64,000 nucleotides of DNA, from sequence record MK962749, one strand, 5' to 3'. Position numbers and translations under genes: made by a program. This DNA comes from Shigella phage CM1. Positions 29,058 through 63,546 of this stretch are shown here, in pieces. Position 1 is the first letter of the stretch; the number at the start of each line of letters is the position of its first letter. The notes under the pieces are model-generated. The model searched no databases and was not told where the DNA came from. It was given only the letters and a program-made list of their open reading frames with translations.

Positions 29058-29333
29058 TTGTGTATTGTTGTTTTCAACAAGAGGGGGTCATTTATGTACA
29101 AGTCATTTTCAATCTACTCAAGACAGGCGAAACACTACACAGAGATCCTGATCACTCAGAAAAAATCTGTGGAAGGTGAGTGGGAATATCACCATAAAAT
29201 GTTGCGTCCAGACTGGGTTTTTGATAGACTTATTGCTATGATCCCTCTCGGAGAAGTATACCCTCTGACAGCCCATCGCGATGCTTGGGATTTAATTGAT
29301 TACATAGATTCATTTAAGGAGCCTAGATTATGA
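29058..29333 (+). CDS. hypothetical protein
   Basis: 91-aa ORF. Confidence 0.4.
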   Translation: MCIVVFNKRGSFMYKSFSIYSRQAKHYTEILITQKKSVEGEWEYHHKMLRPDWVFDRLIAMIPLGEVYPLTAHRDAWDLIDYIDSFKEPRL

Positions 29334-29728
29334 AGATTGAGATTACTAAAGAAGGTAAGAAAGTGTCCGGCAACTATGCAACAGTAATTCGGGATTTAAT
29401 GTTTGAAGCCACCAAGATCGGTACATCTAAAGTTGGTCAAACTGTTAGTGTGAAAAGTAATATCTCCACAGGAGAGAAGGTATTCATTGTGGTCAAAGGG
29501 CAGGATCCCGTGGAAGGAACAGTGGGCCGAGGTGGCTACCTGTGCATTTCTGAAGAGCCGCGTATGTTAGTGACTGACGCTACTATGGGTGGGAAACGTG
29601 TGTGCGAGGCGGATGAGGTAATGATTATCCAACCTGTTGATCCAGATGACCCAGCAACTTGGGTGGTAGGAAATGAAATCTTCTCTTTAGAAGAGTTATC
29701 CTTCCCAGCACCGCGCTCTGTTCAGTAA
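29330..29728 (+). CDS. hypothetical protein (MKIEIT-type N-terminus)
   Basis: 132-aa ORF. Confidence 0.45.
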   Translation: MKIEITKEGKKVSGNYATVIRDLMFEATKIGTSKVGQTVSVKSNISTGEKVFIVVKGQDPVEGTVGRGGYLCISEEPRMLVTDATMGGKRVCEADEVMIIQPVDPDDPATWVVGNEIFSLEELSFPAPRSVQ

Positions 29729-29765
29729 TAATTTATCTTACCAGGGATGGTAGGTAGGAGGTAGC

Positions 29766-29999
29766 ATGAAAGTTAAATTTCTTACAGATTTAGGGTACCC
29801 TTCCTTGGTTGACTGTGTTGGTAAAATTGTGGAAGCAAAACGGCTATCTGCAAACGAGAATGTTGTCCTGGTTAAAGGGAAGGATTTACTAGCTGCAGGT
29901 GCAGAGTCTGGCAGGATCTCTCCTGATTATATGTATTACCTATCTTTAAGTAATCTGCCAGAGCGAGGCGGTAAAGGCCTTGAAGTTGTGGAGGAGTGA
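29766..29999 (+). CDS. small acidic protein, paralog family member
   Basis: MKVKFL...VKGKDLLAAGAES...LEVVEE. Confidence 0.45.
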   Translation: MKVKFLTDLGYPSLVDCVGKIVEAKRLSANENVVLVKGKDLLAAGAESGRISPDYMYYLSLSNLPERGGKGLEVVEE

Positions 30000-30529
30000 C
30001 AGGTATGCTTCTGATTAACTGGGAAGACCTCTATGGGGACAAAGACCCTGTTGCGTTTGTTGATCGTAGGTGGAGATACACTGAAGAACAACTGGCGGCA
30101 AAAAATTTAACTGCAAAACGCAGAAAGATCATCCAGTGCAAGTACAAATACGCACAGTTTGCTGCAAAAGTGTCTCCACAAATCGAGAGCTTTGTGCTTA
30201 AATTGTATGACGAGTACCTCAAATTCAAATTGGATTTTGTGCAGGTGTACCGTGCACAGGTACGACCAGATACCAACATATGTAGATGGAAGGTTGTTTG
30301 TGAAGGTAAAGATTTGCCGCTCAGCTTGACAATTGAGTGGCGTTATGGGTATCATGAGTGCGGTCTGTATGATATTTGGGATGTCATTGTAGATCCTGCT
30401 AAGCATCTGAACACAGAGGAGCTGGAATATATCAATAAGGTTATTCTCGATATGTTTTTCAGCTACACACATGAAAACTCTGAGAAAGAACGGGATAATT
30501 TTCTTGACACCCTCAGCGACCATTTGTAG
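29996..30529 (+). CDS. hypothetical protein
   Basis: 177-aa ORF. Confidence 0.45.
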   Translation: MTGMLLINWEDLYGDKDPVAFVDRRWRYTEEQLAAKNLTAKRRKIIQCKYKYAQFAAKVSPQIESFVLKLYDEYLKFKLDFVQVYRAQVRPDTNICRWKVVCEGKDLPLSLTIEWRYGYHECGLYDIWDVIVDPAKHLNTEELEYINKVILDMFFSYTHENSEKERDNFLDTLSDHL

Positions 30530-30559
30530 TATACAATTTAACCTACAAAGGGAGGACCA

Positions 30560-30796
30560 ATGAGTATAAATGTTGTGCTAATAGGTTACCTGGTAATGTC
30601 CGTTATAACAGCGGTATTCTTGACAGGTGTATGCATCGTGTCCAGACGAAGGGTGAAGTTTGATGATTTTATCACCATCATCACTGCTGCACCTTTTTGG
30701 CCTGTTGTTATCTTCATCGTGATAATGTGCTTGGTTGATTACTACAAGAATATCCGTAAGGAGAAAAAGGAGGGTAGGGATGGAGACCGCACCTAA
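30560..30796 (+). CDS. small membrane protein
   Basis: 78 aa; two hydrophobic helices. Confidence 0.4.
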   Translation: MSINVVLIGYLVMSVITAVFLTGVCIVSRRRVKFDDFITIITAAPFWPVVIFIVIMCLVDYYKNIRKEKKEGRDGDRT

Positions 30797-30932
30797 AACT
30801 GTTTATACTGTTCTTAAAGAGATTGCGTTCTACGCAGATCTTAGCCAGGCACCTTTATGGGAAAAGAGCATGTATTTAAAATGGTGCGTTAATTTAGGGA
30901 GGCCTTCCAGTGTTTCAAGCCATGTTTATTGA
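30780..30932 (+). CDS. hypothetical small protein
   Basis: Internal ATG of ORF 30735-30932 with AGGAGGG RBS. Confidence 0.3.
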   Translation: METAPKTVYTVLKEIAFYADLSQAPLWEKSMYLKWCVNLGRPSSVSSHVY

Positions 30933-31015
30933 GATGCTATCTGGGGTATTGTTACTGGTAGCCATCTTAGGTGGTGCAGTTCTGATGTATAACTATCTTG
31001 AAAAAGGAGACAGCA

Positions 31016-31201
31016 ATGGTAAAAAATAAATCTTTAGAGCAGGCTGAAAACCTTCTCCACGAGCTGGTAAAGGAGTGGAAAGTTGAATACTCAGATTTTA
31101 ATGCACGAAAGGGTGAAGATTATTGGCCTACGGAGCGCTCAGAGGGCGAATGGTATCAAGATTTTATAGAGTGGTTATATCAGACGTGCGATGAGGGGTG
31201 A
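31016..31201 (+). CDS. hypothetical protein
   Basis: ORF 30998-31201; start at MVKNKS with AAGGAGA RBS. Confidence 0.4.
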   Translation: MVKNKSLEQAENLLHELVKEWKVEYSDFNARKGEDYWPTERSEGEWYQDFIEWLYQTCDEG

Positions 31202-31668
31202 CGATGTTTGTTAAATATGTAAAAACGTGCCTCAACAGTCTTGGCAGAGAGCATTGGTACACCTTGCTTGAAAAAGGGGAAATTTTAACAAAATCTGGAA
31301 AGATAACTTTGATACCTCTTGATAGTAAAGGTAAAGACCCGTCACGACTTGTTATAGATGATTACGTTACAGGTGTGACGTTCGAGGTCTCTGTGGAGAG
31401 GTTAATACGCAGAGCTGGCGGCCCTTATGACCGAAGAGAGTATGTTTTCGATTCCGTTACAGAGATGGGGGAGCATCCGTCTTTAATGTTCAGGATGGTA
31501 ATCAGAGATATGAGGTCATCTATAGATAGGATCGTAAAGGACATTAAGGAACCTTTTAGAGTAAAAGTTAAGAAGTTTTTCGATTCTAAGATTAACATAC
31601 TTGCCGTTGCACTAGGTGTAGTTCAACTTCTGTTAATTTTGCACTATTTTGAACTACTATTTAAGTAG
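31198..31668 (+). CDS. hypothetical protein with C-terminal TM helix
   Basis: 156-aa ORF. Confidence 0.4.
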   Translation: MTMFVKYVKTCLNSLGREHWYTLLEKGEILTKSGKITLIPLDSKGKDPSRLVIDDYVTGVTFEVSVERLIRRAGGPYDRREYVFDSVTEMGEHPSLMFRMVIRDMRSSIDRIVKDIKEPFRVKVKKFFDSKINILAVALGVVQLLLILHYFELLFK

Positions 31669-31730
31669 TAGTTGAGATATGGCACAAAGGATGTGCCATA
31701 GTGAAATAAACTAAGAAAGAGGTAGAGAGA

Positions 31731-32078
31731 ATGCCAAAGATTAAAACGTTATTACTGTGGGTAGCTGTTTTAGCTTTTATAGGGTACTGGACTTGGGAAA
31801 CTGAATTAAAAGATATCGGATATACCAGTCTTGAGAGCAAGGCGTGCATTGGCATAACCGATGCGTTCAGGCAAAATGCTATGGATCACGAATGTGTTGA
31901 TGCAGATATAGATGAGAAACTGTCTAAGGACAAAGATTTTTACCATGGGCATGCTTTACTTGATAGTGGTGACACTGTAGAGTTCTGGTCGTGGTTTCGT
32001 GAAGATGGAACAATAAAAACAGCAGTAAAGATCTCTAACAAAGAGTTAATGCTGTTGCAGCAAAAGGAGGCTCAATGA
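31731..32078 (+). CDS. hypothetical membrane-anchored protein
   Basis: 115 aa; N-terminal TM LLLWVAVLAFIGYWTW. Confidence 0.4.
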   Translation: MPKIKTLLLWVAVLAFIGYWTWETELKDIGYTSLESKACIGITDAFRQNAMDHECVDADIDEKLSKDKDFYHGHALLDSGDTVEFWSWFREDGTIKTAVKISNKELMLLQQKEAQ

Positions 32079-32362
32079 TCTGGATATCCTATGCTGATGG
32101 CACCATGCTGTATACTGCAGGTACCAGATATGAAGTTCAGGAGAACGATAAAAAATTTATCGTAAAAACATTTGACAAGGACGACAACCTTTTGCTAGAA
32201 TTGACTTACAAAGTTGGAGAGGTATCCAATATCCAGTTGGATTGTGGTCATAAAGATAATCCACTCAAAAAACCTGGAGTAGGTAAGGCTTCAGAAGAAC
32301 GTCTGTCTCGTATTGCAGAAAGCGTTTCTCCCCAAAAATCTAAGAAGAGGACTAGAAAATGA
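32075..32362 (+). CDS. hypothetical protein
   Basis: 95-aa ORF. Confidence 0.4.
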   Translation: MIWISYADGTMLYTAGTRYEVQENDKKFIVKTFDKDDNLLLELTYKVGEVSNIQLDCGHKDNPLKKPGVGKASEERLSRIAESVSPQKSKKRTRK

Positions 32363-32553
32363 AAAACTTACGTTTTAACACTTATTACTACAACACATTG
32401 AATGATTTGTATTATATTGTTCGAAGTAAAAGTCTTGAAACAGTCCTATTCTGCCGCGAACCTTTCAAAGGGGAGGAAGTAGAGTCTGAGATGAATGTTA
32501 GCCAGATCACCTCTTTGTTGCTCTCAGGCGCAATGGAAGAAGCAATATTCTAA
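32359..32553 (+). CDS. hypothetical protein
   Basis: 64-aa ORF. Confidence 0.35.
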   Translation: MKNLRFNTYYYNTLNDLYYIVRSKSLETVLFCREPFKGEEVESEMNVSQITSLLLSGAMEEAIF

Positions 32554-32571
32554 ACCAGGCGGGAGGGTTTT

Positions 32572-32757
32572 ATGAAGCACTATTGCCTGTCTGGTAGAAT
32601 GGGTGCAGATTGTGATTGGGTTTTCTTAAAACTTGTCAGCATTCGAGAGTTCATCCCAGAGGAAGAGCAAGAAAGCGAGCTGATGTCATGGATCAACCAT
32701 TACGGTAACACTTTTCGGCATGTTAAGGTAGAAGAGTTGCCAAGCGAGGCTGATTGA
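32572..32757 (+). CDS. hypothetical protein
   Basis: 61-aa ORF. Confidence 0.35.
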   Translation: MKHYCLSGRMGADCDWVFLKLVSIREFIPEEEQESELMSWINHYGNTFRHVKVEELPSEAD

Positions 32758-32759
32758 CT

Positions 32760-32849
32760 ATGATTGCATCAATATTAACGTTTATGGGTGGCGTGGCATT
32801 CGGATTCATTGTTTGCCTGTTTATAGTGATTATGTCTATGCGAGGCTGA
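32760..32849 (+). CDS. 29-aa hydrophobic membrane peptide
   Basis: MIASILTFMGGVAFGFIVCLFIVIMSMRG; fills the gap between adjacent genes. Confidence 0.3.
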   Translation: MIASILTFMGGVAFGFIVCLFIVIMSMRG

Positions 32850-32852
32850 ATT

Positions 32853-33149
32853 ATGAAACTTTTTGAGTGGTTTAAAAAGTTTAAATATAAAGCTGTAGCC
32901 ATCGTGCCGTGGTCCATTCAGTGGGTTGATGAAGGTGGTCTACCGATACCTGGTGACAAAGATACTGGGTACTGGATTATGATGGAGAACGGGTTTGGAA
33001 AGCGAAAGTATACGTGCACAAACTCTACTCGATCTGCACTTAATAGAGTGCCTGGTTACAAACTTATGGTTGTGTGGAAAATGTCAGGCGTGCCTCCAGC
33101 CAATGCTCAATTTCTTACTGACAATCCGACCACGGTAGAGGGAGATTGA
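32853..33149 (+). CDS. hypothetical protein
   Basis: 98-aa ORF. Confidence 0.4.
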   Translation: MKLFEWFKKFKYKAVAIVPWSIQWVDEGGLPIPGDKDTGYWIMMENGFGKRKYTCTNSTRSALNRVPGYKLMVVWKMSGVPPANAQFLTDNPTTVEGD

Positions 33150-33433
33150 TAATGAAAAAGATTAACAGTAGTGAAGTAGAGTTTAAACTTGTCGGAAAAG
33201 GCACTTACTGGGAAGTTCGTCAAAAGGTATATTTGTTCGGTCTTATTCCCTACTGGTCTAAATTCTACTGGGGAGCTAACGAGTTGGGAAGATACGCCAC
33301 CAAATCAATGGCACTTATTGGTATAGCAGAGTACATTGCAGCCAGAGATAGGGTTGGAGACACTTATTACTATACTGCGGACGATATTCGTAACAGTGTT
33401 TACGTCCCACAACCACCTGATGGAGACCGTTGA
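33146..33433 (+). CDS. hypothetical protein
   Basis: 95-aa ORF. Confidence 0.4.
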   Translation: MIMKKINSSEVEFKLVGKGTYWEVRQKVYLFGLIPYWSKFYWGANELGRYATKSMALIGIAEYIAARDRVGDTYYYTADDIRNSVYVPQPPDGDR

Positions 33434-33657
33434 TGAAAGTTAAAGTTTTAAATTCAAGCTTCTATATTGGTCAGGAGCCTTTAGTAGGAAAAGTGTTTAC
33501 TGCTGTCCCTAACGAAGATTACCCTGACCTTTTAAAAATAAAAGGAGCAGATCTTATTGCCGCTGGTGCATCTCAGGAATGCTTTGACAGTCAGTGGACC
33601 TACAACTTTGCCCTAGGTGAGGATGTAGAGGTAGTGGAGGACGATCATGAAGGTTAA
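33430..33657 (+). CDS. small acidic protein, paralog family member
   Basis: MMKVKVL...IKGADLIAAGAS...VEVVEDDHEG. Confidence 0.45.
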   Translation: MMKVKVLNSSFYIGQEPLVGKVFTAVPNEDYPDLLKIKGADLIAAGASQECFDSQWTYNFALGEDVEVVEDDHEG

Positions 33658-33901
33658 AATTCTTGATTCTAACGTCTACTTGGGACAATCCTTCCTGAAT
33701 GGGAAGGTCGTTCCTGCGGTATACTTTGAAGGGTTGCCGTGGGAGGATCCTGTGCGGCAACATCACAGTTATGTAGGCCACAACGTGGTGTTTATCTTGG
33801 GATCAGACCTGATCACCGCTGGTGCACCTGAATATTATTTCGGGGAAGGGTCCTACTATGCCTTTGGGGTAGGGTCAGATGCAGATATTGTAGAGCTGTG
33901 A
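33647..33901 (+). CDS. small acidic protein, paralog family member
   Basis: MKVKIL...ILGSDLITAGAPE...DADIVEL. Confidence 0.45.
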   Translation: MKVKILDSNVYLGQSFLNGKVVPAVYFEGLPWEDPVRQHHSYVGHNVVFILGSDLITAGAPEYYFGEGSYYAFGVGSDADIVEL

Positions 33902-33913
33902 TGGGTAACCGTT

Positions 33914-34312
33914 GTGAAAAATAAACTGTTTAAAGTTACAATGAAAATTCGCGGGGCTTGGAGCGTAAAGCAAGGGCGTATTCCAGAATTTGAGAAAGAC
34001 TTCTACGTAGTCTCCACCTCGGAGGAGGCTGCATGCTGGCAGGCTGGCTATGCCTATGCAAGAACCTGGTACGAAGGATACCAGACTGGGGGCTATGACG
34101 GAGAAATTATCAGCAAGGGTGTAGAAGAAATTAATGTGTTGACAAGTGAAAAAGTTTTTGTTATAGTGCATCCAGATTCCAGAGTGAAGCATTACTGGAA
34201 TGCCAGAACAAAAACTTGGACACCGTTTGCAGATTCTGCTACGCCACTTTTAAACCAGAAAGCTCTTGACTCTGCCCCAAGTTATGGGGTTGTTGAAGAA
34301 AAGCTAAACTGA
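33914..34312 (+). CDS. hypothetical protein, paralog of 36119-36514
   Basis: Shares the pattern V..HP.S...YW...WTP with ORF 36119. Confidence 0.45.
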   Translation: MKNKLFKVTMKIRGAWSVKQGRIPEFEKDFYVVSTSEEAACWQAGYAYARTWYEGYQTGGYDGEIISKGVEEINVLTSEKVFVIVHPDSRVKHYWNARTKTWTPFADSATPLLNQKALDSAPSYGVVEEKLN

Positions 34313-34329
34313 AACAGTGAGGTGTCACC

Positions 34330-34620
34330 ATGATGGATTTAATTCTAAATATTGATAACGCAGGAGAGTTTAAAGACGATGGTGTAACAAGCGTGGACAA
34401 ACCCTGCTCTGCTAAGGTTGACTCAAAATGGACCTACAAGTTTGACGGAGAGATCTTCGCAAATGATGAGAAGGTTGTAGATGCTGCAGCCATTTTAAAC
34501 GCTCTAGGGTACGACCCTGTGAATTCTTTGATCAAGGATCCTGTTGAGTTTGCAGAGTATGTTCGAAAAATGGCAGATCTTGCTGTGGATATTTTAAAAA
34601 CTATCGACAACAAGCTGTAA
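34330..34620 (+). CDS. hypothetical protein
   Basis: 96-aa ORF. Confidence 0.4.
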   Translation: MMDLILNIDNAGEFKDDGVTSVDKPCSAKVDSKWTYKFDGEIFANDEKVVDAAAILNALGYDPVNSLIKDPVEFAEYVRKMADLAVDILKTIDNKL

Positions 34621-34625
34621 AAACT

Positions 34626-34654
34626 GTTGACACAACGCTTCAGATTTAGTATCA
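34626..34654 (+). promoter_or_regulatory. sigma70-like promoter upstream of hpf-like gene
   Basis: TTGACA, 17 bp, TATCAT; approximate. Confidence 0.5.
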
Positions 34655-34702
34655 TTGTTTTCAAAGAGGGTTTGGTTCCCTCTTCTTTAAAAGGAACACG
34701 TT

Positions 34703-35020
34703 ATGCAAATTGAAATCACTGGCAACGTAGAAATCACTGAAGGTATGGTGTCTTTCATTTCCCACAAAATGTCTAAGCTGGAGCGTTTGCACCCCTCTGC
34801 CAACTATGCACGTGTGAGTGTAAAAGTTGAAAATGATCACCAGGAAGTTATGGCGCTCATTTTTGACAATTCTGGAAAAGAAGTTATTGCCAAGGCTAAA
34901 GGTAGTGATGCTTACGAGGCAACTGACCGTATGGTAGATGTTGCAGCACGTCAGTTGGCTAAATGCGGTGGAAAGAAAGGTAAGGGGAAAGGCAAAGTAA
35001 AGATTGACTTTGGAGAATGA
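34703..35020 (+). CDS. ribosome hibernation promoting factor / RaiA (YfiA) family protein
   Basis: MQIEITGNVEITEGM...KLERL...VSVKVE...DAYEATDRMVDVAARQLAK is colinear with remembered E. coli HPF/YfiA. Confidence 0.75.
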   Translation: MQIEITGNVEITEGMVSFISHKMSKLERLHPSANYARVSVKVENDHQEVMALIFDNSGKEVIAKAKGSDAYEATDRMVDVAARQLAKCGGKKGKGKGKVKIDFGE

Positions 35021-35157
35021 GGTGCTACAATGGGTGTGATTAAGAAATTAGCCCCAAATGTAGAGATTGCATGCTTTGAAATTATGTTTGCAATCGCAGT
35101 TGTAGTTAATGTGTTAGGTTACGGCTATTAATATCAAATAATTGAGGAGACCTCTAA

Positions 35158-35427
35158 ATGAAAATTAAATTATTCAAAACTGAGCTGGCAGACAAAAACT
35201 GTGGACTGGTTGAAGGCATGATTGTCGAAGCACAACCAGTTGACTATATGAAGGTGGTTCGTGATGCCCTGGGTGAAGGTTTTGATCTGATGGAGCCAGC
35301 TCTGCGAGAAGATGTTATCGAGATGGCTAAAAAGCACACACCTGAAGGAATGGTGGTGTTTGTTGCACCGGGTAACGGAGAAGAGTTGATTGTAACTCCG
35401 GATGTGTATGAGATTGTAGAGGAATAA
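35158..35427 (+). CDS. small acidic protein, paralog family member
   Basis: MKIKLF...FVAPGNGEELIVTPDVYEIVEE. Confidence 0.45.
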   Translation: MKIKLFKTELADKNCGLVEGMIVEAQPVDYMKVVRDALGEGFDLMEPALREDVIEMAKKHTPEGMVVFVAPGNGEELIVTPDVYEIVEE

Positions 35428-35518
35428 TCCTGCTTGGATTAGCATACTTCCTCGACAAGGAAGGTTTGTAATTATTTGTGGGAAAGGAATCCCAATCTCT
35501 TACCAGAGGTGATACTAT

Positions 35519-35782
35519 ATGATTGTTTATTTTAAAACTTCAGGTGGATACCCTGATTCTCAAAGCTTGATCGGAAAAACGTGCACAGCATACTCACCTC
35601 TTGATGAGGAGGTAAGTGATATCCTACGAGATATGTATCGGATTGACCCCCAAGAAGCCTTTGATCAAAACCTTGTATTTGTCAAGGGCTCAGATATGAA
35701 GTCTTTGGGAGCATTCCCTGAAGCAGATGATGATGCCGTTTATTCGTTCATGACTCCTTTTGAAGCTATGGTTGTTGGGTGA
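35519..35782 (+). CDS. small acidic protein, paralog family member
   Basis: FVKGSDMKSLGAFPE core shared with family. Confidence 0.45.
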   Translation: MIVYFKTSGGYPDSQSLIGKTCTAYSPLDEEVSDILRDMYRIDPQEAFDQNLVFVKGSDMKSLGAFPEADDDAVYSFMTPFEAMVVG

Positions 35783-35786
35783 TAAT

Positions 35787-36119
35787 ATGAAAGTACGCTT
35801 TATTGGTGAAACAATTCCTGTGCATCTCCGGTCGCCTGAGGATTCTGCAGATCTTGCATCTCAAAAGGCGAGAGGTTATGATAAGAAAGTAACCTCAACC
35901 GATGTAGTGCTTGAGGCTACTAGTCTACCTGACCCTGCTGCATTCTTTAATCATTATGGGTACTATTTCAGCAATCTGATGAATATCGGTGAGCTTGTGT
36001 TTATTAGTGGTGGAGAAATTGTTGGCAAGCTTGGCGGCGATCCGGATATCTTTCATGAAACCTGTCCTTTTGCATTTGTGGTAGGTTCAGATGTGGAAGT
36101 TATTGAGGAGGTGCGGTAA
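35787..36119 (+). CDS. small acidic protein, paralog family member
   Basis: Start at MKVRFIGE; ...FVVGSDVEVIEEVR. Confidence 0.45.
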   Translation: MKVRFIGETIPVHLRSPEDSADLASQKARGYDKKVTSTDVVLEATSLPDPAAFFNHYGYYFSNLMNIGELVFISGGEIVGKLGGDPDIFHETCPFAFVVGSDVEVIEEVR

Positions 36120-36514
36120 TGGTAAGCCTATACCGTGTTGAGTATAGCTCAGATACTGTATACAACGTAAGAAGCAAAGATCGCAGCGACAGAGTGCAAG
36201 AAATGTATGTTCTTGCCGACAGTCCGTTATCTGCAGCGTTCAAGGCAGGGGCTCTTGCATCTCGTTGGAAATTTGAAGGTGGATCTTTCTATGAAGAAAC
36301 CCTTGAAGATTCTGTTGTTATTTCTTCTGTAGAGGTTTCAGATGACTACGAAGGGAAAAAGTTCGTAATGCGGCACCCACACAGCAACATTGCGTACTAC
36401 TGGGATGTTCTGAACAACGAGTGGACCCCAGATCTTCAGAAGGCTACTGTGCTAACACCGTTTTTGGCAGATAAGTTCCCACCAGAAGGTAATTTATCCG
36501 CACTGTTTCAGTAA
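36119..36514 (+). CDS. hypothetical protein, paralog of 33914-34312
   Basis: 131-aa ORF with shared HP..YYW..WTP segment. Confidence 0.45.
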   Translation: MVSLYRVEYSSDTVYNVRSKDRSDRVQEMYVLADSPLSAAFKAGALASRWKFEGGSFYEETLEDSVVISSVEVSDDYEGKKFVMRHPHSNIAYYWDVLNNEWTPDLQKATVLTPFLADKFPPEGNLSALFQ

Positions 36515-36590
36515 TTTTCTTGCACACAGGTGTTGACAACGCCAACCCTGTGTGAAATAATACCTTCATCTTAACAAGACAGGGGACCGA

Positions 36591-36851
36591 TTGATGAAGA
36601 TTAAATTGAAAAACCTTGAAACGGCAGAGATTCAGGACGGTGTTGATTTCCGTTCTAAAGATGGTGACATCTTAGAGGTAAATATTCCAACCTACGAGCT
36701 GATTAAAGGTTTTGGCAACGTTCCGGAAGAGGATATTACAGAAATTCTTATGATGTTGATTATTGACGGAACTGTGTTTGTAGGTGAAGGTGAGAACGCT
36801 ATTGCAATCCCAGGCCATTTTTATGAAGTAGTTGACGAAGAGGTGCTGTAA
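36591..36851 (+). CDS. small acidic protein, paralog family member
   Basis: MMKIKLKNL...HFYEVVDEEVL; promoter-like TTGACA upstream near 36533. Confidence 0.45.
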   Translation: MMKIKLKNLETAEIQDGVDFRSKDGDILEVNIPTYELIKGFGNVPEEDITEILMMLIIDGTVFVGEGENAIAIPGHFYEVVDEEVL

Positions 36852-37202
36852 ATGAAAGTAGAAATTACCGGTTTTGATGTGAATGTGGTTCCGGAAGATA
36901 TTTTAGCTAAACTTCCAGAAGGTTTTGGTAACGGCGTTGTGGTGGATGCTGTTCCTCCTACCAAAGACATTCTGCTGCAGTATGGTGTAGCAGAGGAAGA
37001 TGTCGATAAAGTTCTTACAATGATGGCAATCGATCGTGTTGTCGTTGTTAAAGGTCTCGATAATTTTGAGAGTGATCCCCTGATTATTCGTGGAGATGAC
37101 TACAAAATCATCGATAATGAAGGCCAAGAGTTCTATGAACCTTGTGCAGAAGATATTCTTAACTTATTACTGGAAGCAGGTACCGAAGAGGAGGACGAAT
37201 AA
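36852..37202 (+). CDS. small acidic protein
   Basis: MKVEITGFD..., acidic C-terminus EEEDE. Confidence 0.45.
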   Translation: MKVEITGFDVNVVPEDILAKLPEGFGNGVVVDAVPPTKDILLQYGVAEEDVDKVLTMMAIDRVVVVKGLDNFESDPLIIRGDDYKIIDNEGQEFYEPCAEDILNLLLEAGTEEEDE

Positions 37203-37531
37203 TGAAGATTGACCCGTTACTGAAGGCTCGTGCAGAAAAAGCGTACACCATTAAGCTGACCAACCTGGTTCCTACTTATCATCCAGATGTAGGTTGGCCT
37301 GAAGGTCTGGTAGAGGGGACTGTAACAGCTGCATACCTCCCTAACATCAAATACCTTATGGAAATCTTGGAGCTGGATGAGGAAACGGCAGAAGAGTTCC
37401 AGTTGGACATGAAACAAAGTGGGACTCTGGTTATTCACGGGTGGTATAATACTAAAGACGCAGAAGATCCTCTTGTAACTTCTAATCTGGCATATGAAAT
37501 CTTAGGACCTTTGAACCTGGGGGAAGACTAA
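37202..37531 (+). CDS. small acidic protein
   Basis: 109-aa ORF, translationally coupled. Confidence 0.45.
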   Translation: MKIDPLLKARAEKAYTIKLTNLVPTYHPDVGWPEGLVEGTVTAAYLPNIKYLMEILELDEETAEEFQLDMKQSGTLVIHGWYNTKDAEDPLVTSNLAYEILGPLNLGED

Positions 37532-37818
37532 TGAAAGATCTGGTTAAGATTAAGATTAAAGATACCAACGGCGAACTCAGCCATTTTGGAATTAATGATG
37601 GTGACGAGCTGATCGCACACCTGCCTACCAAGGAAGTTGTAAGCAAAGCAGTTGCCGGAGAAGAAGATGCAATGCAGGCTGCAGGTGTGGATGAAAACTA
37701 TGTAGCCATGTGCATGTGCCGAGACCAGGTTGTTCTGTATAAAGCGTATCGACCAAACGGAGCCACGGAGTGGCTTGTATTCCGACCCGAAGGATATGAA
37801 ATCTTAGAGGCACTATGA
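37531..37818 (+). CDS. small acidic protein
   Basis: 95-aa ORF, translationally coupled. Confidence 0.45.
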   Translation: MKDLVKIKIKDTNGELSHFGINDGDELIAHLPTKEVVSKAVAGEEDAMQAAGVDENYVAMCMCRDQVVLYKAYRPNGATEWLVFRPEGYEILEAL

Positions 37819-41533: not shown

Positions 41534-42579
41534 GGCGGACGGAATGGGAATACTTCTCATTCTTATAACAATTCTCAAATATCGAGGCAGTGAGAGAAAT
41601 TAATAGGCCAGGCCGTTCACACAGTGGCACAACATTTGCAACCTATTTTGTGTGGATGAATGAGAATACCTATCATTGTGAGAACTGTTATCATTACGGG
41701 CAATTTAACATAATACCCATTATGCGCACCACTGGCGATACATACAGGGATTGATAACATGGGTTACTGTTTACGCACATAACAATTATATTTCTTATTA
41801 TTTGTGGGGGATATAGTTAGCAGCCAATAGATTAGATATTGACCTGCAGACTTCTGACCGTCTAGACGTCTAAACGCCCACACATCAAGGGTTATACATA
41901 CATTACTGAATGTAAACAAGGCCGCAAAAATGCTACCATACCAGTTTGTAAATTTTTCATGCAGCACTTGACAAAGAGGAGGAAAACTTGTCTGACATAC
42001 TGTGACATAATATGACATAATAGTGACACACTGGGCATACTCAACACACTGGATACGGCGGACGGAATGGGAATACTTCTCATTCTTATAACAATTCTCA
42101 AATATCGAGGCAGTGAGAGAAATTAATAGGCCAGGCCGTTCACACAGTGGCACAACATTTGCAACCTATTTTGTGTGGATGAATGAGAATACCTATCATT
42201 GTGAGAACTGTTATCATTACGGGCAATTTAACATAATACCCATTATGCGCACCACTGGCGATACATACAGGGATTGATAACATGGGTTACTGTTTACGCA
42301 CATAACAATTATATTTCTTATTATTTGTGGGGGATATAGTTAGCAGCCAATAGATTAGATATTGACCTGCAGACTTCTGACCGTCTAGACGTCTAAACGC
42401 CCACACATCAAGGGTTATACATACATTACTGAATGTAAACAAGGCCGCAAAAATGCTACCATACCAGTTTGTAAATTTTTCATGCAGCACTTGACAAAGA
42501 GGAGGAAAACTTGTCTGACATACTGTGACATAATATGACATAATAGTGACACACTGGGCATACTCAACACACTGGATAC
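41534..42579. repeat. tandem direct repeat, 2 copies of about 523 bp
   Basis: Minus-strand track ORFs 41764-42153 and 42287-42679 share an identical 96-aa C-terminal segment; likewise 41892 and 42415; both offsets 523 nt. Confidence 0.85.
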
Positions 42580-62768: not shown

Positions 62769-62963
62769 CTAAACGAACTCTGCAAGAGTTGTGTTGTTCA
62801 CTGCACCGCAGTAAATGGAGTATCCCAGCCCATTAGAGTGCAGAAACCACGGCGTGCCGAAATTATCTTTCACGTAGACATCGCCGTTGTTTGTAAAGGG
62901 CCAATATTCTTCACCAAGGGTAAAATACCTATTCATACCTTCAGCAAGATACTTTACTTTCAT
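62769..62963 (-). CDS. hypothetical protein
   Basis: 64-aa ORF. Confidence 0.4.
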   Translation of the reverse strand: MKVKYLAEGMNRYFTLGEEYWPFTNNGDVYVKDNFGTPWFLHSNGLGYSIYCGAVNNTTLAEFV

Positions 62964-63187
62964 AGGTCCTCTTCAACAACTACAAACTTGGCAAGCAAAG
63001 TGGTTCCGTAGATATGATACTCACCGTTTGCCAGGTGAGAGATATACCAGTCAACCCCTTCCTCGTCTTTAATCATTTTGTTTGCACGAGCTTTATCGTA
63101 ATAAACCTCGTAGGTCTTTCCTTCTTTAAAGAATGACATGTCTGTCATCTTTTCTTCTACAAAGGTAGCTTTAACCAAAGTTGTCAT
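62960..63187 (-). CDS. hypothetical protein
   Basis: 75-aa ORF. Confidence 0.4.
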   Translation of the reverse strand: MTTLVKATFVEEKMTDMSFFKEGKTYEVYYDKARANKMIKDEEGVDWYISHLANGEYHIYGTTLLAKFVVVEEDL

Positions 63188-63546
63188 TGATCGGTCTCCT
63201 TCTTGTTAAATCTGAATACTGCAATAATAGCATTCCCAAGGTGCAGTGTCAAGTCATTTCCAAGATACCACAGCATTCCACGTTCATCTTTAATGAAAGG
63301 GTAACAATCTGGTGCCTTCCAGACATTGTACACTTTCCCAACCTGAAAGAAATCAGGCCCTGTTGGGATTTTGGTGCCAGGCCACACTTGAGATACCTGA
63401 ACACACTCCACCTGCATAATAACAGGGATAGTCATGGATGTAAATGTTTTTGTTGGTTCTACTACCATAAAAATCTCCTCTTTGCTCAACAGCACCTCCC
63501 TGTGCTGATAGTTTACATTAGTGACAATCACCCCAGTTCCGACCAC
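63184..63546 (-). CDS. hypothetical protein
   Basis: 120-aa ORF. Confidence 0.4.
   Translation of the reverse strand: MVGTGVIVTNVNYQHREVLLSKEEIFMVVEPTKTFTSMTIPVIMQVECVQVSQVWPGTKIPTGPDFFQVGKVYNVWKAPDCYPFIKDERGMLWYLGNDLTLHLGNAIIAVFRFNKKETDQ

Follow-up and report, generated by a model that had tools for sequence, protein, structure and literature searches.

The standalone SH3 protein DUF7244 adjoins the lysis cassette of T1-like phages and is of unknown function (PMC13164509), and the phage counter-defence protein Nip uses SH3-like domains (PMC11984713). We analysed a 64,000-nucleotide stretch of Shigella phage CM1 (sequence record MK962749; hereafter, the window), in which an 8.5-kb gene block (29330-37818) holds ten small genes that we assign to two families, G1 and G2, of five members each. 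Both families are predicted to fold as five-stranded SH3-like beta-barrels. The nearest relatives of the block are found in rV5-like phages, which are among the coliphages most often isolated and serve in biocontrol and O157 typing. PHROGs, the catalogue of phage orthologous groups, already contains the genes: phrog_5009, 13920, 13661, 11868, 12359, 12155, 12457 and 12794 match them end to end by profile (E 1e-31 to 1e-76). PHROGs splits the ten genes into eight groups, without function or fold, whereas here they collapse to two families, with 35519 and 35787 joined to phrog_5009 as G1 and five singleton groups joined as G2. The two-family grouping with its common predicted fold is a modest result, given that the families are in PHROGs and the fold is a common one; it turns ten 'hypothetical' genes into two fold-level families that apparently went from one copy to ten and were then conserved, and it provides a compact target list.

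Like the DUF7244 protein, the products of these genes are small, single-domain, SH3-like coliphage proteins, and in lambdoid prophages a G1 homologue likewise immediately precedes the holin, endolysin and spanin genes. Unlike it, the window genes are multi-copy, acidic, and located away from annotated lysis genes. Fold searches of BFVD returned uncharacterised small early proteins of 60-100 amino acids (aa) from large virulent phages, including T4-like, T1-like and T5-like phages, those of T1-like phages being among the weaker matches (E 0.08-0.4). The matched proteins, such as those from Shigella phage CM1, Citrobacter phage Merlin and Escherichia phage RB49, have the same predicted fold (TM-score 0.7-0.89) at 12-26% identity; all are unannotated and add no function. 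Eukaryotic SH3 domains, the KOW domains of Spt5/NusG, PsaE and the C-terminal domain of PhnA share 4-25% identity with the window proteins, and have no sequence relationship to them. Pfam, DUF7244 included, gave no relevant match to the ten proteins at E <= 0.1 (37531 had a sub-threshold LRAT hit, E 0.07) and no match to 30 wider G1 homologues at E <= 0.01, and NCBIfam held nothing relevant for the family proteins. The only hits of the Pfam, NCBIfam and PDB searches (a cell-adhesion protein at 0.035, an RluB fragment at 0.003, and the LRAT hit of 37531) were judged to be noise.

An initial annotation of the sequence had listed seven open reading frames (ORFs) in this block as one family of tandem paralogs. 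All seven exist on the plus strand, three of them with better starts: ATG 33433 is preferred over TTG 33430, ATG 35787 lies within the ORF 35760-36119, and ATG 36594 is preferred over TTG 36591. We retain the TTG positions below where a comparison was made under that name. The tandem expansion of small acidic paralogs also stood; the single family did not, and 36852, 37202 and 37531 had to be added to the list. The G1 genes are as follows.

29766..29999, plus strand, 77 aa: follows the ClpP, methyltransferase and 29330 genes; matches phrog_5009 at E 8e-36; ratio of nonsynonymous to synonymous substitution rates (dN/dS) 0.10
33433..33657, plus strand, 74 aa: minimal core without insertion; alternative TTG start at 33430
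33647..33901, plus strand, 84 aa: insertion between strands 2 and 3; 11-nt overlap with the previous gene
35519..35782, plus strand, 87 aa: longer insertion at the same site; matches phrog_5009 at E 1e-4 and its own phrog_13920
35787..36119, plus strand, 110 aa: most divergent G1 member, with the largest insertion

Every one of the five carries a (V/I)KG.DL..AGA core. In the G1 alignment this core appears as a K-G-x-D-L-I-x-A-G-A turn with a variable insertion ahead of it; in the more general form K/L-G-x-[DE]-[LIM]-x-x-x-G-[AG], the turn follows strand 3 and is also present in distant homologues. An all-against-all blastp of the window ORFs linked 29766 to 33430 (5e-6), 33430 to 33647 (2e-12) and 33430 to 35787 (0.006), and an hhalign chain joined all five genes at 82-99% probability, the upper value being that of 33647. 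The phrog_5009 profile matched 29766, 33433 and 33647 at E 2e-31 to 5e-38. The two longer members were placed by profile comparison: 35519 reached 82-90% hhalign probability to other G1 members, and 35787, which the phrog_5009 profile did not match, reached 96% with 33647 and 84% with 33430 over the 40 columns at the C-terminus. When each member was left out in turn, the remaining G1 profile recovered it at 22-61 bits (27 bits for 35519 and 22 bits for 35787), a score matched by none of 2000 composition-preserving shuffles. At the level of sequence, 29766, 33433, 33647, 35519 and 35787 thus demonstrably belong to one homologous family.

The initial annotation had placed the KG.DL core in all seven of its genes, including 35158 and 36591. 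It is absent from both, and from 36852, 37202 and 37531 as well; these five genes lack the G1 turn and are therefore not G1. They make up G2.

35158..35427, plus strand, 89 aa: weakest link in G2; goes by the name 'sigma 54 modulation factor' in some records
36594..36851, plus strand, 85 aa: heads a tightly coupled run of four G2 genes
36852..37202, plus strand, 116 aa: acidic C-terminal tail, net charge -21
37202..37531, plus strand, 109 aa: N-terminal extension; start overlaps the preceding stop by 1 nt
37531..37818, plus strand, 95 aa: start overlaps the preceding stop by 1 nt

With shallow profiles, hhalign probabilities for G2 were no more than suggestive (2-50%), yet each alignment ran collinearly over the full length. 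Once orthologues of two divergent metagenomic relatives had been included, 36591-36852 and 36852-37202 each reached 94% (E 1e-7), the alignment of 36594 with 36852 spanning 83 columns. The alignments of 37531, all collinear, gave 51% to 36852, 31% to 36591 and 28% to 37202. Moreover, when profiles were built from four of the five groups, the omitted group came top among 1696 ORFs every time (five tests, E 4e-3 to 1e-8, the lowest value being that of 36852). The corresponding scores were 17-27 bits, against shuffle maxima of 8-13 bits; 37202 (22.7 bits) and 37531 (20.4 bits) were each reached by 0 of 2000 shuffles. By these profile measures 35158, at 16-21% hhalign probability to the other members, is the least secure member of G2. 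We also considered 35158 as an HPF/RaiA protein and rejected this assignment: there was no PF02482 match, hhalign to the hibernation factor gene at 34703 gave 0.5%, and the predicted fold differs. Several GenBank and RefSeq records, NC_041869, MK883718 and PQ505080 among them, nevertheless label this gene 'sigma 54 modulation factor', a label that probably spread from the neighbouring true HPF gene; the present assignment corrects this recurring mis-annotation.

Over both families the shuffle maxima were 7-13 bits. Because the leave-one-out scores lie above them, the similarity inside G1 and inside G2 is not compositional. This bears on a rival explanation of the block, namely that the resemblance reflects composition or translation signals only: a generic MK start, and Glu-Glu codons doubling as the ribosome-binding site of the following gene. 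The signals themselves are real. MK begins 16 of the 33 block genes, and the C-terminal EE or ED codons of 29766, 33433, 35787, 36594 and 36852 overlap the GGAGG-like ribosome-binding site, or Shine-Dalgarno sequence, of the next gene. Such C-termini use codons of the GAG-GAG or GAG-GAC style, with the next gene closely packed. The double-duty segments are located at 29985-29999, 33636-33657, 36100-36119, 36835-36851 and 37185-37202, and read VVEE, VVEDD, IEEVR, DEEVL and EEEDE. Overlap with a ribosome-binding site can thus bias C-termini towards Glu and Asp and mimic a shared protein motif, and in tightly packed phage genes common N- or C-terminal 'motifs' may generally be by-products of translation signals. 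The MK(V/I)K start and VE(V/I)(V/I)EE C-terminus, which had been offered as family hallmarks, lose much of their weight in this light, and the resemblance between G1 and G2 rests largely on them. As an account of the families, the translation-signal explanation is very improbable: within families, 17-61 bits stand against at most 13 bits for shuffles, with 0 of 2000 matching, and the AlphaFold models are confident. Furthermore, the acidic E-[VI]-[VI]-E-E strand at the G1 C-terminus is kept even in distant homologues from unrelated contigs, and is therefore also part of the G1 fold. The explanation is refuted within each family and stands as a partial explanation of the motifs that cross between them.

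Between the families we found no significant sequence link. G1-G2 hhalign comparisons gave 8-22% probability, confined to the N-terminal 27-49 columns, and richer profiles and global mode gave no significant link either; a broad G1 profile of 30 sequences found only 'MKVKLL'. Cross-profile scores were at the level of unrelated neighbouring proteins used as controls.

The structural models are as follows.

G1, modelled on 33433 (30-sequence alignment): predicted local distance difference test score (pLDDT) 91.0, predicted template modelling score (pTM) 0.79; strands 2-5, 21-23, 33-37, 56-61 and 65-69; helix 38-43
G2, modelled on 35158 (35-sequence alignment): pLDDT 91.8, pTM 0.72; strands 2-5, 22-27, 66-69, 76-79 and 84-88; helices 30-60, between strands 2 and 3

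Each family is thus predicted to be a five-stranded SH3-like beta-barrel, and the models superpose on solved SH3 and KOW domains. G1 differs from known SH3-like barrels by an extra short helix after strand 3, and G2 by a 30-residue helical insertion in the loop equivalent to n-Src. The G1 insertions and the G2 helices occupy the same strand 2-3 loop, and this common insertion site supports the common fold. The paralogs vary chiefly in that loop, which holds nothing, a short loop or a three-helix bundle, and in their tails. Alignment and structure prediction hence found similarity beyond composition within the families and a shared predicted fold, so that the outcome which the initial annotation had named as refuting it, compositional similarity with no shared predicted fold, did not occur. 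Its description of the proteins as acidic was also borne out: nine of the ten have isoelectric points of 4.05-4.7 and net charges of -6 to -21, the exception being 29766 (5.4 and -1). Most neighbouring block proteins are acidic as well.

The shared fold raises the possibility that all ten genes descend from one ancestral gene, G2 having arisen from G1 by loss of the DLIAAGA turn and acquisition of a helical insertion. The two families have the same predicted fold and match many PDB chains in common; their insertion site is identical and they are interleaved within one block. In addition, the beta1 'MK(V/I)K.L' and beta2 'G..V.A' segments align (hhalign 22%, E 9e-4), and the best out-of-family matches include the G1 gene of a distant relative, L019, for the G2 profile (E 0.11) and 36852 for the G1 profile (E 1). 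These matches fall short of a significant full-length profile-profile match, the cross-profile scores are no better than those of unrelated control proteins, and SH3-like barrels arise often, so a shared fold is no proof of common descent. We therefore hold a single origin to be possible, if short of probable. A bolder version, in which G1 and G2 would form one undescribed phage-specific SH3-like superfamily that grew from one gene into a ten-member rV5-like toolkit, with loop insertions binding and neutralising different host factors or immune components early in infection, strikes us as speculative and rather improbable.

We next considered the distribution of the block. Matches occurred in 121 phage records; coverage of the block was 80% or more in 114 of them, with nucleotide identities of 90-99%. 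The closest (98-99% identity) were Escherichia phages ECP2309, JeffSchatz (Bas55) and APECc02 (genus Vequintavirus, rV5-like). Related records annotate the block as about 25-29 'hypothetical proteins' and one ribosome hibernation factor. A divergent clade of two rV5-like metagenome contigs (L016 and L018; ClpP 69% identical) contains all ten family genes one-to-one, at 29-81% identity, and is without 33914. The more distant L019 (ClpP 45%) has a single G1 gene, the orthologue of 29766 at the same position, and no G2 gene. On the evidence of this syntenic gene in L019, the ancestral state was likely a single G1 copy beside the ClpP-like protease and methyltransferase genes. Neither family was found in the syntenic regions of the sister genera represented by PVP-SE1, KB57, FENT2 and 18-1-2, all of which have the ClpP-like and methyltransferase genes. 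Judged from these genomes, the families are specific to rV5-like phages, the sister genera holding other genes at the locus.

Wider searches returned few further homologues. A tblastn search with 33433 alone against 50,697 phage records gave only Vequintavirus hits, at 82% identity or more, and a word-indexed search of 5.8 billion proteins with both family alignments found only rV5-like sequences and a few from E. coli prophages. An exhaustive profile search of 1.84 billion representatives yielded only 40 G1 clusters at E <= 1e-3, the new ones mostly of 63-87 aa with a common consensus and one a tandem double domain. A G1 homologue that shares 46% identity with 29766 (P0031) occurs as a single copy in E. 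coli prophages of the lambdoid type, in the interval from the Q antiterminator to the holin gene. It is 75 aa long, has 309 member sequences and lies among small unannotated ORFs (8001-8228 in contigs L007 and L008, 371-598 in L009). One metagenomic variant, P0028, resembles a hybrid of this lambdoid prophage type and the phage 33430 type.

The initial annotation had called such arrays typical of diversifying genes. In gene-wide, pooled Nei-Gojobori estimates from eight genomes, dN/dS was 0.08-0.14 for G1 and 0.04-0.15 for G2, in the range of ClpP (0.04) and HPF (0.07); other block genes reached 0.36. Copy number is nearly invariant, as the coverage of the block and the one-to-one complement of the divergent clade indicate. 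The sole change seen was a 70-aa 33430::33647 chimera that replaces the pair in contigs from two samples. Because dN/dS is low and copy number near-invariant, the array is, by these two gene-wide measures, old and conserved rather than diversifying. The expansion to ten copies would accordingly predate the split of the known rV5-like lineages, with the copies kept since by purifying selection. We did not use one apparent gene loss: in phage V18 (L014 7405-8203, corresponding to window 35400-36200) 35519 and 35787 are annotated in truncated form. Over 801 nt this region aligns at 97.9% identity with just two gap positions, and the truncations therefore reflect either pseudogenes created by frameshifts or errors of sequencing. 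Genuine deletions in V18, at window positions 30038-30851, 32383-32526 and 33041-33251, remove non-family genes.

With these constraints, we favour, with low confidence, the view that the ten proteins are cytoplasmic, early, stoichiometric protein-binding modules whose loop insertions set their specificity, and give it a probability of roughly 45%. Each protein would be made early in infection and would bind a protein partner, from the host or possibly from the phage itself, via a conserved barrel face; in G1 this face would comprise an invariant Tyr11, the G-x-[DE]-L-I-x-x-G-A turn and a Tyr/Phe strand. Which target or effect a given paralog has would depend on the variable loop insertions. 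The SH3-like domains of Nip provide a precedent. Several points weigh against this view. No characterised homologue was found by sequence in the Pfam, NCBIfam and PDB searches, and we found no published functional data on rV5 paralogs or anti-defence genes; the CRISPRi-ART study of the rV5-like phage EdH4 covers capsid and rII genes only. That the proteins are early is inferred from where the genes lie and from matches to promoter consensus sequences. A common surface as strongly conserved as that of G1 is equally compatible with a single ligand for all members in place of separate targets, and four G2 genes so tightly coupled might instead encode parts of one complex.

The gene neighbourhood is relevant to the question of timing. 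Upstream of the block, the plus strand encodes an anaerobic ribonucleotide reductase, PhoH, a ClpP-like protease and a DNA methyltransferase; the ten family genes form the end of this nucleotide-metabolism and replication arm, and coding strand and GC skew switch at ~40 kb in the window. The features interspersed with the array are as follows.

33914..34312, plus strand: first of two unrelated paralogs (phrog_7379), interleaved with the array; blastp 2e-7 and hhalign 94% to 36119
34627-34655, plus strand: near-consensus sigma-70-like site, a pattern match, before the HPF gene
34703-35020, plus strand: HPF/RaiA ribosome hibernation factor (PF02482, E 9e-13), mid-array; conserved in L016-L018
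35004..35031, plus strand: sigma-70-like promoter site, 10/12 consensus with TG, pattern match only; upstream of 35158
36119..36514, plus strand: second unrelated paralog (phrog_7379), with a weak homologue in L019
36533..36561, plus strand: sigma-70-like promoter site (TTGACA, 17 nt, AATAAT, with TG), 11/12 consensus, pattern match only; precedes the G2 run, in an intergenic gap

The region contains 51 sigma-70-like sites against 34 +/- 7 expected, and near-consensus plus-strand sites occupy the few intergenic gaps. One-base stop/start overlaps join 35787 to 36119, 36852 to 37202 and 37202 to 37531. As far as such patterns can indicate, the arrangement fits early, translationally coupled expression driven by the host polymerase.

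The same arrangement could be read differently, the proteins being subunits of one or a few hetero-oligomers, or else chaperones or regulators of phage-encoded proteins, for instance the adjacent ClpP-like protease, and not host-directed effectors. The four G2 genes at 36594-37818 have adjacent or overlapping stops and starts behind one promoter-like site, and an overlapping layout behind one promoter is usual for equimolar subunits. The ancestral G1 copy is linked to the cluster of ClpP-like protease and methyltransferase genes in three lineages, and purifying selection fits an internal function. On the other hand, PVP-SE1, KB57, FENT2 and 18-1-2 have ClpP-like and methyltransferase genes and neither G1 nor G2, and the lambdoid prophage homologue lives without any of these partners. 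We think an internal role of this kind improbable.

The initial annotation had favoured diversifying host-interaction or anti-defence genes and had suggested a screen for inhibition of restriction or other defence systems. A diversifying anti-defence set locked in an arms race, for example of anti-restriction or DNA-mimic proteins, would suit small, acidic, genus-specific accessory paralogs of an early region, and one homologue does occupy a moron position, between Q antiterminator and holin in lambdoid prophages; that a counter-defence protein, Nip, contains SH3-like domains is again in its favour. Selection speaks otherwise, in that dN/dS of 0.04-0.15 shows no excess over housekeeping neighbours and copy number hardly changes. 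The BASEL study found the Vequintavirinae 'exceptionally susceptible' to restriction-modification, effective protection being apparently lacking (PMC8594841). Moreover, neither Ocr and ArdA nor any further Pfam family matched the proteins, whose predicted fold, a compact barrel, differs from the elongated shape of a DNA mimic. Anti-restriction is thereby disfavoured, and an arms-race set as a whole unlikely; the genes may still act against other defence systems or, more generally, in host interaction.

Neighbours beginning with 'MKIEIT' had also been grouped with the array. This grouping did not survive: 29330 is phrog_5748, 34703 is the HPF/RaiA gene and 36852 belongs to G2. As candidate family members, 29330 and the other 'MKIEIT' genes were rejected (hhalign <= 3%, control-level profile scores). 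In the divergent contigs an extra 98-aa gene with a PF27050 (Phage_P22_Y8K6) hit lies between the orthologues of 36119 and 36594 (L016 11389-11685, L017 11390-11686, L018 11092-11388); in the window this position is the intergenic gap with the promoter-like site.

Among the records that match the rV5-like block, 18 are named 'Campylobacter phage' with Campylobacter jejuni as host (for example, MG065635, MG065653 and MG065659), at up to 99% identity among the matches listed. This host assignment looks doubtful. A scan of the whole window found no tRNA genes. At 41534-42579, where the plus- and minus-strand gene arms converge, the window carries a perfect tandem duplication with a unit of 523 bp (41534-42056 and 42057-42579, copies 100% identical); JeffSchatz has a single copy with no gene annotated. 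This could be a recent duplication or an assembly artefact. Two paralog pairs unrelated to the array had been reported in the window, and both were confirmed by the all-against-all blastp: 33914/36119 (E 2e-7, both phrog_7379) and 61722/62059 (E 8e-10). We noted a third pair in the minus-strand arm, 62960-63187 and 63184-63546 (blastp E 1e-4), whose members fall into separate PHROGs without function.

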